From Nostocaceae cyanobacterium (GTDB lineage: Bacteria > Cyanobacteriota > Cyanobacteriia > Cyanobacteriales > Nostocaceae), in assembly GCA_051861145.1 (NCBI GenBank), contig JBHYDF010000259.1, forward strand, positions 1-10,631: a stretch of DNA of 10,631 nt, read 5' to 3'. Positions 4,278 to 10,631 of the stretch are shown piece by piece (position 1 is the first letter of the stretch; every line of letters starts with the position of its first letter). The notes under the pieces were generated by a model. The model had not been told where the DNA came from. It did not search any database and worked only from the letters and a program-made list of their open reading frames with translations. The position numbers were made by a program, and so were the translations under genes.

Positions 4278-4346
4278 AAACCCTGAAGTAAAAGCCACCT
4301 CTAGAACTTACGCAAAAGGTTCTTGTAATGCTTGATTTTCACAAGT

Positions 4347-4381
4347 GGCAATTCATGAATTGCCGCTACAAATTCTGTGTT
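4347..4381. repeat. Dispersed 35-bp motif: an 18-bp perfect palindrome GGCAATTCATGAATTGCC followed by GCTACAAATTCTGTGTT. This is copy 1 of 2 in the window.
   Basis: The palindrome at 4347-4364 is perfect. The whole 35-mer recurs at 9897-9933 with 3 substitutions. Both copies lie 70-175 nt downstream of a + strand stop codon. Confidence 0.7.
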
Positions 4382-5890: not shown

Positions 5891-6116
5891 CTTGTCATGT
5901 TGCATAAAATCAAATTTTTGTCAATAGATATACTAGACAAATACCAAATAACCAATAACATTTAAATGTTGAAAGATAAAAAATTCTGGGAATACTAAAT
6001 AATGCTGAGGTGCAAGCGCTTCTCAGTAAAGTGTATTTGAGGCAGTCGCACCATAAAGGGAAAGCACCTTTGTGGGCGTTTGCATAGGCGGGAAACTTTA
6101 CAAAAAGACTTGGGTT

Positions 6117-8972
6117 ATGAACAACAAGGACAAGACAACAGACAATTGTCCACAAACGCAGCAACAAGGAAACTTTTCTACTGAGTTTTTACTCCAGATA
6201 ATTAATGCTACATCTGACCCGATTTTTGTCAAAGACCGCCAACACCGTTGGGTAATGCTTAATGATGCCTTCTGTTGCTTTATAGGGTATAGCCGAAAAG
6301 AATTAATTGGCAAGTCAGATTATGACTTCTTCCCAAAGGCAGAAGCTGATATGTTTTGGGAAAAAGATGAATTGGTTTTCACCACAGGCATTACTAATGA
6401 AAATGAAGAATTTTTTACCGATGCTCAAGGGGAAAAAACCGTCATATCTACCAAAAAATACTTATTGACGGATGAGTTTGGTAATCAATTTCTCGTGGGA
6501 ACTATTCGAGATATACAAGCCGAAACAGCTTTGAAAAATAGTGAAAGAAAGTATCGCGACCTGGTTGAAACTTCCCAAGATTTGATTTGGTCTATAGATA
6601 AATCAGGATACTTGACCTTTGTCAATCAGGCAGTCAAAAATATTTACGGTTATGAACCAGAGGAATTAATTGGTCAGCACATTAGTAAGTTAGAGTTACC
6701 TGAACAAATTCAGCAACATAAAGAATATTTTCAACAATTTGTAGTAGCAGAGAGCGTATTTCATTACGAAGCAATTCATCTTGCGAAGGATGGTAGACAA
6801 CTGAATATGTTGTTCAATGGCATAATACAACGGGACGAAGCCGGAAATATTTTAGGTACAACAGGCACAGCTACTAACATTACAGAACGCAAACAAGCAG
6901 AGGCAGAACTTAAGGCTTCGCAAAAAAGACTAGCACTATTGATTGAACAAACACCTTTATGTGTAATTGAATGGAATACCAAATTTGAGATTCAGGAATG
7001 GAATCCTGCGGCTGAAAGAATATTTGGATATAGCAAAGATGAAGTGCTGGGTCGTACTTTTGATTTTATCGTTCCTGAAAGTGCTAAAGAACAAGTCAAA
7101 CAGGTAAGCATTGATTTGCTAACACAACAAGGAGGAAATATAAGTGTAAACTATAACAGAACTAAAGATGCTAGAACGATTATTTGTGAATGGCACAATA
7201 GCCCATTAGTAGACGTTGATGGACAACTAATTGGTGTTGTTTCCATGATGCTTGACATCACAGAGCGCAAGCAAGCAGAAGAAAAACTGCAAAAACAAGA
7301 GCAATTCCTTCGCACTGTCTTTGACGGAACAGAAAATCCCATATTTGTCTTTGATGTTCTAGAAAATGGTGAATTTCGTTATGTTGGTTGGAACGCGGCG
7401 GCTGAAAGAGCCACGGGTATAAGTAGTAAACAAGTAATTGGTAATACACAAGAGTTTGTACATGGTGGAAATGAATTTACACCAGCACGTCAGAGCTTGA
7501 TAAAATGTCTAGAAACAGGTAAATCTATAACCTACGAAGAGTATTTTACTTTCCAAGGGCAACAAAGTTGGTGGCTTACGACAATTAATCCTCTCAAAGA
7601 TATTGAGGGCAGAATTTATCGCATAGTTGCTACTACCTTTAATATTAGCGATCGCAAAAGGGTAGAAGAACAGTTACAACAGCAAGAGCAATTTTTACGC
7701 AGTATTTACGATGGTGTAGAGCAACTGATATTTGTAGTTGATGTCCTGGAAAATGGAGATTTTTGTTATGCTGGTTGGAACTCTCCTACAGAAAATTTAA
7801 CAGGCATCAGTGGCACCGAGGTAGTGGGTAAATCTCCAGAGGATGTACATGGTGAGGTACAAGCAAAAGACATACGTGAGAAATATACAAGATGCGTAGC
7901 AACAGCTAAATCCTTCACCTTTGAAGAATACCTAAATTTCCAAGGTCAAGAAATTTGGTTGCTGACTACGCTTAATCCTTTAAAAGATGATTTGGGTAAA
8001 GTCTATCGCATTGTTGGTACAACCTTTGATATTAGCGATCGCAAAAGGGCAGAAATTAAGTTAAAACAGCAAACACAAAACCTAGAAAAAGCACTGCAAG
8101 AACTGCAACAGGCACAATTGCAACTGATCCAAAGTGAAAAAATGTCTAGTTTGGGTCAATTAGTAGCAGGTGTTGCCCATGAAATTAATAACCCTACAAG
8201 TTTCATCTTTGGTAATCTCGCCTACGCCGATCAATACATCAAAGATTTACTAGGACTGCTACAACTTTACCAGCAATATTATCCCAATCCTGTACCAGAA
8301 ATACAAGCACAAATAAAAGCCATTGACCTAGATTTCTTAATAGAAGACTTGCCGAAACTGCTTAACTCCATGAAGATGGGAACAGAACGTATTCGCCAAA
8401 TAGTGCTTTCGTTGCGAACTTTTTCCCGCATGGATGAAGCCGAGACGAAAGCGGTAAATATCCATGAGGGTATTGATAGTACACTGATGATTTTAGAACA
8501 TCGACTCAAAGACCAAGGCGATCGCAGAGCGATCGAGGTGATTAAAGAATACGGTAACTTACCTCTAGTGGAGTGCTACGCCGGACAACTCAATCAAGTG
8601 TTTATGAATATTCTGGCAAATGCTATTGATGCTTTTGATGAGTCATTAGTCATTGGTCATTCGTCATTGGTACAGGACAAAGGACAAATGACTAATGACA
8701 AAGGACAAATTCACATTCGCACAGAGGTAATTGAGCCAAATCAAGTATCAATTCGTATTGCTGACAATGGACCAGGAATACCAGAGGAAGTAAAGCAACG
8801 TCTATTTGACCCCTTCTTTACTACTAAATCTGTCGGTAAAGGTACGGGGATGGGGCTTTCTATTAGCTACCAAATTATTACGGAAAAACATGGTGGCTCT
8901 TTGGAATGTATTTCCCAGTTAGGAAGCGGTGCTGAATTTGTAATCACTATCCCTTTGCGGCAACAAAAATAA
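6117..8972 (+). CDS. Multi-PAS sensor histidine kinase with 4 PAS/PAC modules, a HisKA domain and a HATPase_c domain, and no transmembrane segment.
   Basis: PAS modules recur with a 126-129 aa period. Each ends with the linker I-T/S-E/D-RK-Q/R-AE, found at nucleotides 6879, 7257, 7644 and 8031. The H-box is SEKMSSLGQLVAGVAHEINNPTSF, the N-box NQVFMNILANAIDAF, the G1 box IADNGPGIP and the G2 box GKGTGMGLSISYQII. The ORF track start GTG 6072 gives an odd MGVCIGG leader. The ATG at 6117 (MNNKDKTT) is preferred. Confidence 0.85.
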   Translation: MNNKDKTTDNCPQTQQQGNFSTEFLLQIINATSDPIFVKDRQHRWVMLNDAFCCFIGYSRKELIGKSDYDFFPKAEADMFWEKDELVFTTGITNENEEFFTDAQGEKTVISTKKYLLTDEFGNQFLVGTIRDIQAETALKNSERKYRDLVETSQDLIWSIDKSGYLTFVNQAVKNIYGYEPEELIGQHISKLELPEQIQQHKEYFQQFVVAESVFHYEAIHLAKDGRQLNMLFNGIIQRDEAGNILGTTGTATNITERKQAEAELKASQKRLALLIEQTPLCVIEWNTKFEIQEWNPAAERIFGYSKDEVLGRTFDFIVPESAKEQVKQVSIDLLTQQGGNISVNYNRTKDARTIICEWHNSPLVDVDGQLIGVVSMMLDITERKQAEEKLQKQEQFLRTVFDGTENPIFVFDVLENGEFRYVGWNAAAERATGISSKQVIGNTQEFVHGGNEFTPARQSLIKCLETGKSITYEEYFTFQGQQSWWLTTINPLKDIEGRIYRIVATTFNISDRKRVEEQLQQQEQFLRSIYDGVEQLIFVVDVLENGDFCYAGWNSPTENLTGISGTEVVGKSPEDVHGEVQAKDIREKYTRCVATAKSFTFEEYLNFQGQEIWLLTTLNPLKDDLGKVYRIVGTTFDISDRKRAEIKLKQQTQNLEKALQELQQAQLQLIQSEKMSSLGQLVAGVAHEINNPTSFIFGNLAYADQYIKDLLGLLQLYQQYYPNPVPEIQAQIKAIDLDFLIEDLPKLLNSMKMGTERIRQIVLSLRTFSRMDEAETKAVNIHEGIDSTLMILEHRLKDQGDRRAIEVIKEYGNLPLVECYAGQLNQVFMNILANAIDAFDESLVIGHSSLVQDKGQMTNDKGQIHIRTEVIEPNQVSIRIADNGPGIPEEVKQRLFDPFFTTKSVGKGTGMGLSISYQIITEKHGGSLECISQLGSGAEFVITIPLRQQK
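8642..8710 (+). repeat. In-frame heptamer repeats inside the histidine-kinase CDS: (GTCATTN)x4, a 6-nt spacer, then (GACAAAK/GACTAAT)x5.
   Basis: Units GTCATTA, GTCATTG, GTCATTC and GTCATTG lie at 8642-8669. After the spacer GTACAG come GACAAAG, GACAAAT, GACTAAT, GACAAAG and GACAAAT at 8676-8710. The 69 nt encode LVIGHSSLVQDKGQMTNDKGQI, which sits between the N-box and G1 box of the HATPase domain. Both unit families match the 5' intergenic STRRs at 1-112. Confidence 0.85.
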
Positions 8973-9324
8973 AGTATTTACCATCAATACCTTTTTTGTT
9001 TCCTGATTTACGTTGGTAATAGTTTGGAAAACATCAAAATATAATAGTTGTTATTAAGATTTTTTTAAATCATAAACCTGGTTTCTGAAAAGACTAATTC
9101 TATATTTACCAATTGTGGTGAAAAAACCGGTTTCTTGTAGTTGAGGTACAAAAATTTATGTCTTTACCGTAACAACAATTGAGTTTTGGGATATTTTTTA
9201 ACGCAGAGGTACGCGGAGTTTTAATTAGAAATTTTATTTATGTAAAATGCAAAATAACACTATTTAAGAGTTTATTAATACGGTTTTATGGCTATGATTA
9301 ATTATCTTTTATGTGACAGTTTCA

Positions 9325-9352
9325 TTCAAATGAATTATAGTTGAGATATAAT
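9325..9352 (+). promoter_or_regulatory. Putative sigma-70-type promoter: -35-like TTCAAA, a 16-bp spacer, -10 TATAAT. A small palindrome TTCATtcaaATGAA overlaps the -35.
   Basis: The TATAAT at 9347-9352 lies 44 nt upstream of the STAS gene ATG, in an AT-rich region where chance matches are frequent. Confidence 0.25.
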
Positions 9353-9395
9353 AGGCGATTTAGAGGAAACTTACACCAGCAACTACTAAGTTTTT

Positions 9396-9722
9396 ATGAG
9401 CCAATCTGTACAAGTCATTCAACCAAGCGGAATTTTAGATGCAACAAAATCACAAGAGTTTCGGCAAAAAATTACTGATACTCTAGAAACTGGTACAAAA
9501 ATTGTATTAGTGGATTTTAAAGATGTAACATTTATGGATAGTTCTGGTTTAGGCGCTCTAGTGTTAGCTTTCAAAACACTGCGAGCAGCTGATAGTAAGT
9601 TGTTTGTCTGTTCAATTAATGAGCAAGTCAGGATATTATTTGAATTGACTGGTATGGATAAGATATTTGATATTTTCCCCAATCAAGAAGAATTTAATCA
9701 AGCTGTAAATAGTTTGAAATAA
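9396..9722 (+). CDS. STAS-domain anti-sigma-factor antagonist (SpoIIAA/RsbV-like), single domain, 108 aa.
   Basis: ATG start. The canonical motif FMDSSGLGALV carries the phosphorylatable Ser of the DSSG motif. The overall fold signature (VLVDFKDVTFMDSSGLGALVLAFKTLRAADSKLFVCSINEQVRILFELTGMDKIF) matches anti-anti-sigma factors. Confidence 0.85.
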   Translation: MSQSVQVIQPSGILDATKSQEFRQKITDTLETGTKIVLVDFKDVTFMDSSGLGALVLAFKTLRAADSKLFVCSINEQVRILFELTGMDKIFDIFPNQEEFNQAVNSLK

Positions 9723-9896
9723 ATATTAAAGAAACATGATGCTTACAGCAAAATTCATTTGTTTAAACCACAATTTTTCGTAAGGGCGGGTTTAGTTAAT
9801 ATCCTTTTGGCTTTAGTTAGAGATTGAAACAAAACCCGCTCCTACTTGTGTCTATACAAATATAGTACTTTTGGTTTTAATGAGGTACACGCTTCG

Positions 9897-9933
9897 GGGC
9901 AATTCATGAATTGCCCCTACAAATGTCTGTATT
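9897..9933. repeat. Copy 2 of the dispersed palindromic motif: a 20-bp perfect palindrome GGGCAATTCATGAATTGCCC followed by CTACAAATGTCTGTATT.
   Basis: It shares the core GGCAATTCATGAATTGCC-N-CTACAAAT-N-TCTGT with the copy at 4347-4381. It lies 175 nt after the STAS stop codon. Confidence 0.7.
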
Positions 9934-10232
9934 TCATTCAATTGAAAACCGCTATAATTGTCTAATATAAATTAACTGACATCTTGCACCCAACGGGAGA
10001 GCCCAACGGGAGAGCCAGTTAAGTGGGCGCGCTCAACCCGCCGTTTGTCCTAAGAGGACACGCTATGCGCTTAGGCGCACGCTTCGCGAACGCGAACTTT
10101 AAGAGGTCTCACCAGTTGCCGCTTGTTGGGAAACCCGCCGTTTGTCCTAAGAGGACACGCTACGCGAACAGCACGCTTACTCACCATTCTCAATAATCCT
10201 AAAATTTAGCCCTGAATTAAAATTCGGGCTGT

Positions 10233-10260
10233 GTAGAGACGTGCCATGGCACGTCTCTAC
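10233..10260. repeat. 28-bp perfect palindrome GTAGAGACGTGCCATGGCACGTCTCTAC, centred on CCATGG.
   Basis: The two 13-nt arms are exactly reverse-complementary around a central AT. The GTAGAGACG half-site recurs at 10311 and, reverse-complemented, at 10514. Confidence 0.9.
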
Positions 10261-10388
10261 ATTGGTTAAAAACCGACTGGCTTTTGAATTTAAACCCATT
10301 TTAATGGGTTGTAGAGACGCGAAATTCTCGCTGTGCGCGTTGCGGTGAGACCAGCGCTGTTCGCGTAGCGTGTCCCCTTGGGACATAG

Positions 10389-10506
10389 GAGGGTTTCCCT
10401 CCGCAGGCGACTGGCGAACCCGGAGGGGGGTTTCCCCCGTTGTAGCGACTGGTGAGACCAGCGCTGCGGGAGGGTTTCCCTCCGCAGGCGACTGGCGAAC
10501 CCGAAG
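10389..10506. repeat. Two copies of a 37-bp direct repeat with an 81-bp period. Each copy contains the hairpin GAGGG-TTT-CCCTC.
   Basis: The copies are identical except for one G/A difference at the penultimate position. A GGGGGG-TTT-CCCCC hairpin and an ACTGGTGAGACC block lie between them. Confidence 0.85.
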
Positions 10507-10631
10507 GGCGTCGCGTCTCTACATAGCCCGAAATTTATTTCAGGGCTTTTTGCAATTAGTGCAAGATGTCTGTTAACGGGACTTAGACAAAAATTAAGCC
10601 CAAATGAAGCCCAAACTAGCTTTATAAGCGG

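Follow-up and report, generated by a model that had tools for sequence, protein, structure and literature searches.

Near the right-hand end of the 10,631-nt contig of a Nostocaceae cyanobacterium that we analysed in full (hereafter the window) lies a stretch of about 600 bp whose base composition sets it apart: GC content is 0.548 in positions 9976–10574 against 0.324 in 9723–9975 and 0.397 in the window as a whole. What is this stretch? A first-pass annotation of the same DNA had described a GC-rich island amid AT-rich DNA, which is real (54.8% GC versus about 32% in the surroundings), and had offered two readings of it, nested small mobile elements or one large structured non-coding RNA. 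We favor the former. With a probability of roughly 0.85, the GC-rich island is a heap of small, hairpin-forming, non-coding mobile repeats that are nested in one another; a gene or a structured RNA is not what it represents. The accompanying statement that the island holds no ORF stands only in part: ORFs of 57–69 aa are present, and they are without a family match. The features of the region are as follows, with strand given where a unit has one; A and B denote two element families described below.

9780–9845: upstream palindromic element GTAAGGGCGGGTTT...AAACCCGCTCCTAC with 18-nt arms (inverted repeat I6, 83% complementary)
9896–9920, minus strand: GTAG-type palindrome, reading GTAGGGGCAATTCATGAATTGCCCC on that strand, with a second copy at 4344–4369
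9978–9989: left arm of the bracketing 12-bp inverted repeat, GACATCTTGCAC, partner of 10559–10570
9989–10014, minus strand: two tandem copies of CCCAACGGGAGAG
10015–10072, minus strand: degenerate A/B-type unit with a B copy at 10044–10072, the first copy of a 35-bp repeat reported in the first-pass annotation
10070–10104: GC-rich spacer containing ACGCTTCGCGAACGCGAAC, an exact 19-nt match to a plasmid of Nostoc sp. UHCC 0302 (L047, 10721–10739)
10105–10172, minus strand: composite unit of ACTGGTGAGACC, a GGCGGGTTTCCC hairpin and a B element (10141–10169), comprising the left arms of inverted repeats I4 and I1
10173–10207: AT-rich spacer
10208–10230: small hairpin E1, AGCCCTGAATTAAAATTCGGGCT, partner of E2 at 10525–10547
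10232–10261: intact 30-bp GTAG palindrome, TGTAGAGACGTGCCA/TGGCACGTCTCTACA, a perfect palindrome (DNA fold z = −8.4)
10262–10309: AT-rich spacer separating two GTAG palindromes
10310–10322: left half of the second GTAG palindrome, TGTAGAGACGCGA, pairing 13/13 with 10511–10523 (I8)
10344–10427, plus strand: A element copy 1, split after GGTGAGACCAGCGCTG by a B element, as judged by comparison with the intact copy 2
10359–10387, plus strand: B element of about 29 nt, GTTCGCGTAGCGTG followed by a TCCC-CTT-GGGA hairpin and CATA, recognized from family members at other loci and from its predicted fold
10425–10459, plus strand: short A-like unit, a GGGGGGTTTCCCCC hairpin and then GTTGTAGCGACTGGTGAGACC, the right arm of I4
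10451–10508, plus strand: A element copy 2, intact, GGTGAGACCAGCGCTGCGGGAGGGTTTCCCTCCGCAGGCGACTGGCGAACCCGAAGGG, with the plasmid and metagenome matches given below
10511–10523: right half of the split GTAG palindrome, TCGCGTCTCTACA (I8)
10525–10547: hairpin E2, AGCCCGAAATTTATTTCAGGGCT, followed by TTTTT and terminator-like in look
10559–10570: right arm of the bracketing 12-bp inverted repeat, GTGCAAGATGTC, matching the left arm at 12/12
10574–10631, minus strand: terminus of an IS701-family insertion sequence with terminal inverted repeat TAACGGGACTTAGACAAAA, found by blastn, its termini and C-terminal peptide checked

Three families, namely A, B and palindromes of the form GTAGAGACG...CGTCTCTAC, account for most of the GC-rich DNA of the island, and their units are oriented on the minus strand at the left (9989–10172) and on the plus strand at the right (10344–10508). 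The evidence that these families are dispersed was drawn from plasmids, metagenome contigs and the loci of other genomes.

Element A is about 54–58 nt long; its GGTGAGWCC head is followed by a long hairpin (CAGCGCTGCGGGAGGG-TTT-CCCTCCGCAGGCGACTGG) and then by a tail that varies. The 13-mer CCCAACGGGAGAG near the left edge of the island is the reverse complement of CTCTCCCGTTGGG, a tail variant in this family, and 7–8 copies of the CTCTCCCGTTGGG-type tail occur in other contigs, always joined to an A core. A plasmid search found the A unit on 17 plasmids, every one from Nostocales, and the 27-nt core of A has at least 120 exact metagenome matches, at least 22 of them contigs of one assembly; the core is absent from the viral contigs. 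Among the metagenome matches listed there are 112 distinct contexts, with outer flanks that differ in each. Since the metagenome loci were chosen for carrying A, counts of A in them are biased, while those of the other modules are not. Nostoc sp. UHCC 0302 carries filled and empty paralogous copies of an IS4 transposase gene that differ by an exact 54-nt in-frame gap, and A copy 2 of the window is 96.6% identical, end to end, to this 54-nt insertion. Terminal inverted repeats are absent from A, and any duplication is at most GG. Elsewhere, copies of A are carried by GGGTAAT, GGGGAAT and AAGTCAA arrays and by GTAG palindromes, heptamer arrays being the commonest host in other contigs (L064, L067–L069, L082, L083 and L103). 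One stem pair of A is C:G in 71 copies, T:A in 33 and mixed in none, a count that ignores kinship of the copies. An iscB gene near one plasmid copy of A raised the question of a link to IscB and its ωRNA, which we rejected; that copy lies inside an IS4 element and not in the RNA region upstream of IscB.

Element B is an element of about 26–29 nt, GTTCGCGTAGCGTG followed by a short variable hairpin; in the copy at 10044–10072 the reverse complement reads AAGCGCATAGCGTGTCCTCTTAGGACAAA. Recognizing the family by its conserved half (CGCGTAGCGTG), we found 12 members at other loci in 1.16 Mb against 0.6 expected. The stems of B vary yet stay complementary, with TGCC/GGCA, TGTCC/GGACA, TGCCC/GGGCA, TGTCCC/GGGACA and TGTCCT/AGGACA all represented (again ignoring kinship). 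For the B-containing 35-mer, the relatives found were diverged family members only: the exact 35-mer and B-hairpin variant of the window has 0 matches in viral contigs and 0 in metagenomes, blastn of 10015–10200 against plasmids gave no match, and the 57-aa ORF across the 35-mer has no protein relative.

The GTAG palindromes are 28–30 bp long. Their repeated half-sites had been singled out in the first-pass annotation, and GTAGAGACG does occur 4 times against 0.02 expected. The palindrome at 9896–9920 recurs exactly on plasmids of Nostoc, Pseudanabaena and Brasilonema and in L175, and that at 10232–10261 has an identical copy with different flanks in both L143 and L106, a T:A to C:G variant being known as well. 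Searched against plasmids, the 30-bp palindrome gave weak matches, in cyanobacteria only, and 11 distinct palindromes of this form were found on other contigs (0.99 Mb). Positions 1510–1829 of the window match the published consensus of a long palindrome in which GTAG repeats of A. variabilis are lodged (PMC3733652).

The arrangement of these units in the island is one of insertion within insertion. The GTAG palindrome formed by 10310–10322 and 10511–10523 is interrupted in the middle by an insert of about 188 nt made up of A-type units, and within that insert a B element in turn divides one A unit. This nesting of three levels, with GTAG palindrome, A and B, recurs in unrelated contigs: A lies inside GTAG palindromes in L072, L075, L124, L132 and L061, A is found with B in L124 and L097, and L124 has B in A in a palindrome. 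The sequences at the points of interruption recur too, in that the flank and half TGGGTTGTAGAGACGCG at 10310–10322 also start intact palindromes in L143 and L106, and the junction GGCGTCGCGTCTCTACA at the right half also follows an A core in L132. Module counts at other loci are above expectation. The proposal of nested small dispersed or MITE-like repeats is therefore supported, since the sub-repeats recur often elsewhere and in varying combinations; the first-pass annotation had itself named such recurrence as evidence against an RNA, and as far as it could be tested, this is what we observe.

The AT-rich spacers at 10173–10207 and 10262–10309 had no match in the searches made, and the former may be original intergenic DNA. 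No dispersed relatives were demonstrated for hairpins E1 and E2 or for the bracketing 12-bp repeat. A terminator scan of 9300–10631 found nothing, so the E2 hairpin and its T-run are terminator-like only. The palindromic element at 9780–9845 lies outside the reported island, within the same repeat-filled intergenic stretch.

Comparison with relatives places the island in its locus. In the syntenic loci of relatives (HK-STAS-RR/SpoIIE) the gap measures −4 to 180 bp and holds no island, and the STAS gene there adjoins a convergent response-regulator/SpoIIE gene; the island thus appears to be lineage-specific. The closest STAS relatives are only about 80% identical, and the window is a lone 10.6-kb contig. 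The best relatives of the histidine kinase of the window reach no more than 48% identity in a genome contig search. A 1.2-kb Logan contig matches the STAS gene, and its ends fall at palindromes.

Could the island instead act as one large structured non-coding RNA, or single-stranded DNA structure, in the form of a functional multi-helix junction? The plus strand has a very stable predicted fold of −322 kcal/mol (z = −22.6), several long-range complementarities are perfect, and local hairpins differ in a compensatory manner between copies. The reported pairings are also largely as described: 10153–10172 pairs with 10356–10375 (20/20), 10311–10322 with 10511–10522 (12/12) and 10208–10241 with 10514–10547 (31/34). 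A pairing of 10105–10116 exists as well, with 10448–10459; the register first given, 10449–10460, yields only 2/12. Similarly, the repeat pair described as 37 bp with a single G-to-A difference is real, its actual length being 40 nt (10388–10427/10469–10508). However, the fold of the minus strand is just as stable (−321.8 kcal/mol) and likewise far better than that of its shuffles (z = −15.4), and the long helices contain 5 G·T, 5 A·C and 17 non-wobble mismatches, a distribution without strand bias. Nor are the long-range pairings mutually compatible, as had been supposed: 10208–10241/10514–10547 (I2) and 10310–10322/10511–10523 (I8) cross the helices between 10105–10172 and 10356–10459 (I1 and I4), which precludes the coexistence of all pairings without pseudoknots. 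Covariation is confined to individual small units, with none between distant arms, and Rfam gave no match in the island at E ≤ 1, three weak miRNA-model matches elsewhere being far below threshold. Oppositely oriented copies of one family pair over long distances, and this alone accounts for the apparent "long-range helices" as well as for the extreme folding energy. Given also the islandless syntenic loci and the recurrence of the GC-rich modules elsewhere in other combinations, we consider a large functional RNA or single-stranded DNA structure extremely improbable.

The right-hand border of the island invites a different explanation. No transposase had been seen in the window by the first-pass annotation, yet 10574–10631 carries the C-terminal codons of an IS701-family transposase, with the last 11 codons and stop (AYKASLGFIWA*) at 10594–10629 on the minus strand. 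This segment matches plasmid IS701 ends at 89–93% identity (blastn, E down to 3e-14) on plasmids of N. punctiforme PCC 73102, Nostoc PCC 7524, Fischerella, Tolypothrix, Chroococcidiopsis and Geminocystis; 52/56 nt are identical to the N. punctiforme copy, as are all of the last 11 residues. Both the terminal inverted repeat and the transposase C-terminus match the IS701 family, and of the element itself the window retains no more than the final 58 nt. The NCBI contig has no sequence beyond the window and ends inside this element, which is why it stops at 10631. A partner gene had been anticipated just past the island, and an IS701 transposase gene is indeed there, but nothing ties it to the island repeats, and we regard the IS701 element as a neighbor of the island and not a component.

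With that neighbor directly adjoining, the whole island might be taken for one large MITE, a non-autonomous deletion derivative of an insertion sequence that is bounded by the 12-bp (extended 32-nt) repeat and moved as a unit by the transposase of an insertion sequence, perhaps the adjacent IS701. The bracketing repeat at 9978–9989/10559–10570 is present as reported (12/12) and extends to 25/32, and Anabaena and Nostoc are known to carry MITEs, Nezha among them (PMC3184786). In 1.88 Mb of other loci, the string TGACATCTTGCAC appears 4 times where 0.22 would be expected. The IS701 end starts only 3 nt past the right-hand repeat, however, and what extends the right arm past 10573 is the terminus of IS701; this leaves a true repeat of just 12 bp, and the outer 32-nt inverted repeat was ruled out as a MITE end. 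Moreover, the island shows no target-site duplication, the 12-mer is unlike the IS701 inverted repeat, plasmids and 1.9 Mb of loci yielded no second copy of the composite or of its junctions with the 12-mer, and the interior can be shown to be a patchwork of independent families. An origin as a single MITE is thus very unlikely.

A further question is how a heap of nested repeats would have been built. The elements would spread by insertion at or beside existing hairpin apexes, into heptamer arrays and at GG sites, without terminal inverted repeats and with a duplication of no more than 2 nt. For the GTAG palindromes, the probable agent is a REP-associated tyrosine transposase (RAYT, of the IS200/IS605 type) that acts on single-stranded hairpins; there is no RAYT ORF within the window. 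We know of no transposase for A or B. That A (54 nt) and B (about 27 nt) move by an undescribed mechanism targeting hairpin apexes, heptamer arrays and GG sites is a speculative and rather improbable proposal, for which the candidates would be an unrecognized single-strand-specific enzyme or template switching during replication. The island occupies non-coding DNA downstream of the STAS gene, a place where insertions would do no harm.

Much of the island might alternatively have grown in place, one or two seeded units having been amplified and inverted through slippage, hairpin-mediated template switching or recombination. Neighboring copies differ little from each other (98% identity over 40 nt, 97% over 35 nt and 100% over 16 nt), the 13-mer CCCAACGGGAGAG is repeated exactly in tandem, units sort by orientation with minus at the left and plus at the right, and comparable chains of units are found on T. 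variabilis plasmid C. Near-identical neighbors probably do stem from local duplication; for the near-identical pairs as such, insertion and local duplication both fit. Growth in place leaves unexplained the split GTAG palindrome and the interruption of A by B, both of which recur at unrelated loci, as well as the clean filled and empty IS4 site. As a full account we find it unlikely, and it serves better as one part of the nested-repeat explanation than as an alternative to it.

How do the nested repeats compare with known systems? The small dispersed repeats SDR1–8 of Nostoc punctiforme and relatives are reported to be very short (21–27 nt) and highly repeated (Elhai et al., 2008, Genome Res 18:1484), and to be restricted to the Nostocaceae lineage, other HIP1-rich cyanobacterial genomes having yielded none (PMC5861425, citing Elhai 2008). 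By these descriptions, A and B resemble SDRs in being tiny, non-coding, hairpin-forming and seen almost only in Nostocales, in being embedded in heptamer arrays and other small elements with nested insertions, and in keeping their hairpin structure through compensatory changes. B, at about 26–29 nt, falls in the SDR size range, whereas A (54–58 nt) is about twice the published size. A literature search for the motif strings returned primer coincidences only. GTAG REPs and RAYTs are reported in Anabaena and Nostoc, with families GTAG-12, -15 and -16 (Di Nocera et al., 2013, PMC3733652; Bertels and Rainey, 2011, PMC3116915). By their description, our 28–30-bp palindromes are like these REPs in being GC-rich, starting with GTAG, dispersed, intergenic and often inside longer palindromes; they differ in that their GTAG is base-paired with CTAC in a symmetric structure, whereas in REPs it is an unpaired tag at one end. 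The Nezha MITE has terminal inverted repeats matching ISNpu3, plus direct repeats (Zhou et al., 2008; PMC3184786). A and B are like Nezha in being non-autonomous, structured and intergenic, with recent mobility seen from filled and empty sites, and unlike it in having neither terminal inverted repeats nor direct repeats. The marks of a classical MITE, terminal inverted repeats matching an insertion sequence together with a target-site duplication, are lacking both in A and in the island as a whole. Heterocystous cyanobacteria reportedly also carry heptamer tandem repeats known as STRR, an account attributed to Mazel and co-workers in 1990. The window has such heptamer arrays at 1–126 and 8638–8721, unlike the island itself, which has none; the array at 8638–8721 lies in the kinase gene, where it was considered as a clean insertion and where an alignment shows a variable-length loop in all orthologues.

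Taken together, the island is a known kind of small-repeat pile-up and is ordinary for Nostoc-type cyanobacterial genomes. It is most likely without cellular function, apart from incidental hairpins in a read-through transcript, and the locus gives no sign of a new biological system. Pile-ups of this kind matter because they fold with spectacular scores and may be taken for large non-coding RNAs, because they yield spurious small ORFs and because they break assemblies, as in this contig, which begins in heptamer repeats and ends in an insertion sequence. They also provide clean examples for studying how small repeats move in Nostocales, including the 54-nt filled and empty site, the insertions at palindrome centres and the perfectly covarying stem pair. 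Were the undescribed mechanism to prove true, this locus and the IS4 pair of UHCC 0302 would offer a tractable entry to how repeats of less than 100 nt spread.

The island at 9976-10574 consists largely of short repeats that recur at other loci and are nested within one another. As the first-pass annotation had described, it is GC-rich (54.8% GC versus 32.4% in neighbouring intergenic DNA), its direct repeats are real (a 40-nt pair at 98% identity, a 35-nt pair at 97%, a 16-nt pair at 100% and one 13-mer in tandem) and its half-site GTAGAGACG is repeated (four observed, 0.02 expected); the listed inverted repeats are also present, with one register displaced by a base, as 10105-10116 pairs with 10448-10459. 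Counting copies of the sub-repeats on plasmids and at metagenome loci, we found a hairpin element of about 54-58 nt (A), a shorter hairpin element (B) and 28-30-bp GTAG palindromes, all present at other loci. On the right-hand side of the island these are arranged as follows:

10310-10322 and 10511-10523: halves of a GTAG palindrome, split by ~188 nt
10344-10427: A copy 1, interrupted by B at 10359-10387
10359-10387: B element within A copy 1
10425-10459: short A-like unit between A copies 1 and 2
10451-10508: intact A element, GGTGAGACCAGCGCTGCGGGAGGGTTTCCCTCCGCAGGCGACTGGCGAACCCGAAGGG, which includes the right-hand 40-nt repeat

The ~188 nt that split the palindrome are A copy 1, the short A-like unit and A copy 2, and 9989-10172 holds related units in reverse orientation to those on the right, two B copies among them. 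Hairpins E1 (10208-10230) and E2 (10525-10547), two AT-rich spacers (10173-10207 and 10262-10309) and the bracketing 12-bp inverted repeat have no relatives in the sequences searched, apart from single copies of the 12-mer itself at four fetched loci (L071 280, L086 3386, L087 2219 and L119 8497; always in a −35-like context), and may either stem from the original intergenic sequence or be elements specific to the lineage. The 12-mer, which lies within TGACATCTTGCAC, was observed four times against 0.22 expected in 1.88 Mb of fetched cyanobacterial DNA. Left of the island, AT-rich 9912-9959 is 88-90% similar to short plasmid stretches, significantly in Nostoc UHCC 0926 (E 9e-6) and weakly in Anabaena cylindrica, Nostoc flagelliforme and Acaryochloris (E 0.2-0.7); it is probably another dispersed element.

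By blastn, A occurs on 17 plasmids, all of Nostocales genera, and its 27-nt core matched at least 120 stretches in JGI metagenomes and is carried by at least 22 contigs of one single assembly. Among the matches listed (0.99 Mb fetched), A lies in 112 distinct contexts with different outer flanks in each. It has no terminal inverted repeats and as single-stranded DNA is predicted to fold into one long hairpin, of which one stem pair is C:G in 71 of the copies compared, T:A in 33 and mixed in none. Tails are variable (54 distinct 13-mers in the copies compared), and one variant is CTCTCCCGTTGGG, whose reverse complement, CCCAACGGGAGAG, is the 13-mer that stands in tandem in the island. Direct evidence that A inserts comes from filled and empty sites in an IS4 transposase gene, with A present on two Nostoc sp. 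UHCC 0302 plasmids and absent from two other copies of that IS4:

L047 18991-20187: A-filled IS4
L047 1071-2213 and L046 15988-17130: empty IS4

Filled and empty copies differ by one clean in-frame 54-nt gap (TATAT/GG...AAG/GGGTC, slashes marking its edges). The insertion adds 18 residues, ETALREGFPPQATANPKG, and the gene that carries it keeps its annotation as an intact transposase. Beside an A-filled IS4 on a UHCC 0302 plasmid lies an annotated iscB (RNA-guided endonuclease) gene (L046 17606-18898), for which we saw no link to the repeats.

The 35-bp repeat contains B, which runs from GTTCGCGTAGCGTG through a short hairpin to (C)ATA over ~26-29 nt. Its conserved half CGCGTAGCGTG was observed 12 times against 0.6 expected in 1.16 Mb of other loci, where the stems are unlike yet complementary (TGCC/GGCA, TGTCC/GGACA, TGCCC/GGGCA), as are those in the window (TGTCCC/GGGACA and TGTCCT/AGGACA). 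Several of these copies lie within A elements. The exact B-containing variant of the window had no match on plasmids, in metagenomes or as an ORF. Among fetched loci we found 11 distinct GTAGAGACG...CGTCTCTAC palindromes, four with A at the centre; one of the four, at L124, has B inside its A. At L132 a heptamer array encloses a GTAG palindrome that encloses an A core, with a junction string, GGCGTCGCGTCTCTACA, identical to that of the window. The 30-bp palindrome at 10232-10261 recurs with identical sequence at another locus (L143 and L106), and other loci carry a version with a compensating T:A to C:G change, in one case within a heptamer array.

The window is one entire NCBI contig of 10,631 bp, from a cyanobacterium of Nostocales type, with the following genes:

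Plus strand: Ser/Thr kinase-GUN4 protein gene
Plus strand: Band7 protein gene
Plus strand: FHA-kinase gene
6072-8972, plus strand: multi-PAS histidine kinase gene
9396-9722, plus strand: STAS anti-sigma antagonist gene

The nearest STAS relatives (Fischerella, Scytonema, Nostoc) are just 77-83% identical to the window protein. At syntenic loci in relatives the order is PAS kinase, STAS and a convergent response-regulator/SpoIIE phosphatase gene, the last two abutting (gap −4 to ~180 bp) with no GC-rich insert between them; the window continues for at least 909 nt downstream of STAS without reaching the phosphatase gene. The Band7/SPFH gene carries an internal 219-nt tandem duplication (2443-2880, 80% identity), presumably a repeated protein segment.

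It had also been proposed that the island may be a single structured RNA with mutually compatible long-range pairings, and its folding energy is indeed far below that of shuffled sequence. However, 10208-10241/10514-10547 and 10310-10322/10511-10523 cross the 10105-10172/10356-10459 set. The two strands fold alike (−322.3 kcal/mol for plus versus −321.8 for minus), the long-helix mismatches (5 G·T, 5 A·C and 17 others, mostly non-wobble) favour no strand, an Rfam search gave no match within the island, and the relatives' loci lack the insert; on these grounds we reject a single RNA. Where members of a family lie in opposite orientations they pair with each other, which yields the long helices, the crossing of some and the alike folding of both strands.

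At the right edge the end of a transposase gene is in fact present, contrary to the first-pass annotation:

10574-10631, transposase on minus strand (last 11 codons): IS701-family insertion sequence terminus

Positions 10574-10629 match IS701-family ends on plasmids of N. punctiforme, Nostoc PCC 7524, Fischerella, Tolypothrix, Chroococcidiopsis and Geminocystis (89-93% identity, E down to 3e-14). The 56 nt matched in N. punctiforme comprise the terminal inverted repeat together with the transposase gene 3' end, and the same 11 C-terminal residues are encoded on the minus strand of the window (AYKASLGFIWA*). The contig therefore stops inside a multi-copy IS, and the outer part of the extended inverted repeat described earlier is IS sequence. 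Heptamer tandem arrays, typical of heterocystous cyanobacteria, occupy the contig start (1-126; ATTGGGC repeats, then ACAAATG repeats), so that both contig ends are repeats.

The same repeat habit is seen elsewhere in the window. An inverted heptamer array (GTCATTA.../...TAATGAC) at 8638-8721 falls in an ATPase-domain loop of the histidine kinase whose length varies among orthologues; it gave a spurious mir-1537 Rfam match, and one end of Logan contig L001 lies there. A second nested pile-up spans 1510-1829, where one half of the Di Nocera long palindrome (PMC3733652) is matched by 1510-1536 with 1 mismatch and the other by 1803-1829 with 2, no such match being expected by chance. The 266 nt between them are filled with more palindromes and G/C hairpins, and a 141-nt G-run/C-run hairpin cluster within the pile-up was the source of a spurious mir-1892 Rfam match. 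According to Di Nocera et al. (PMC3733652), GTAG-15 dimers of Anabaena variabilis reside in that palindrome.

1546-1562: GTAGGGCTATACCCTAC, between the palindrome halves
1586-1604/1746-1764: perfect 19-nt inverted repeat, between the halves
4344-4369 and 9896-9920: GTAG-type palindrome, GGCAATTCATGAATTGCC then (G/C)CTAC, in two different intergenic regions

The GGCAATTCATGAATTGCC palindrome has exact copies on Nostoc, Pseudanabaena and Brasilonema plasmids.

Taken together, these loci demonstrate dispersal, a filled and an empty site, nesting that recurs both in the middle of palindromes and within heptamer arrays, and hairpin maintenance within units. The elements would insert at GG sites or where the DNA can form extruded hairpins, and near-identical adjacent copies probably arose by local duplication. 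Small dispersed repeats of Nostoc (SDR1-8) were reportedly described by Elhai et al. in 2008. As far as citing papers describe those repeats (PMC5861425, PMC3116915), the behaviour of the island's repeats fits theirs. The GTAG palindromes are candidate substrates of REP-associated tyrosine transposases, enzymes on record both for GTAG REPs and in N. punctiforme (PMC3733652, PMC3116915). The island represents an already known type of feature that is commonplace in such genomes.
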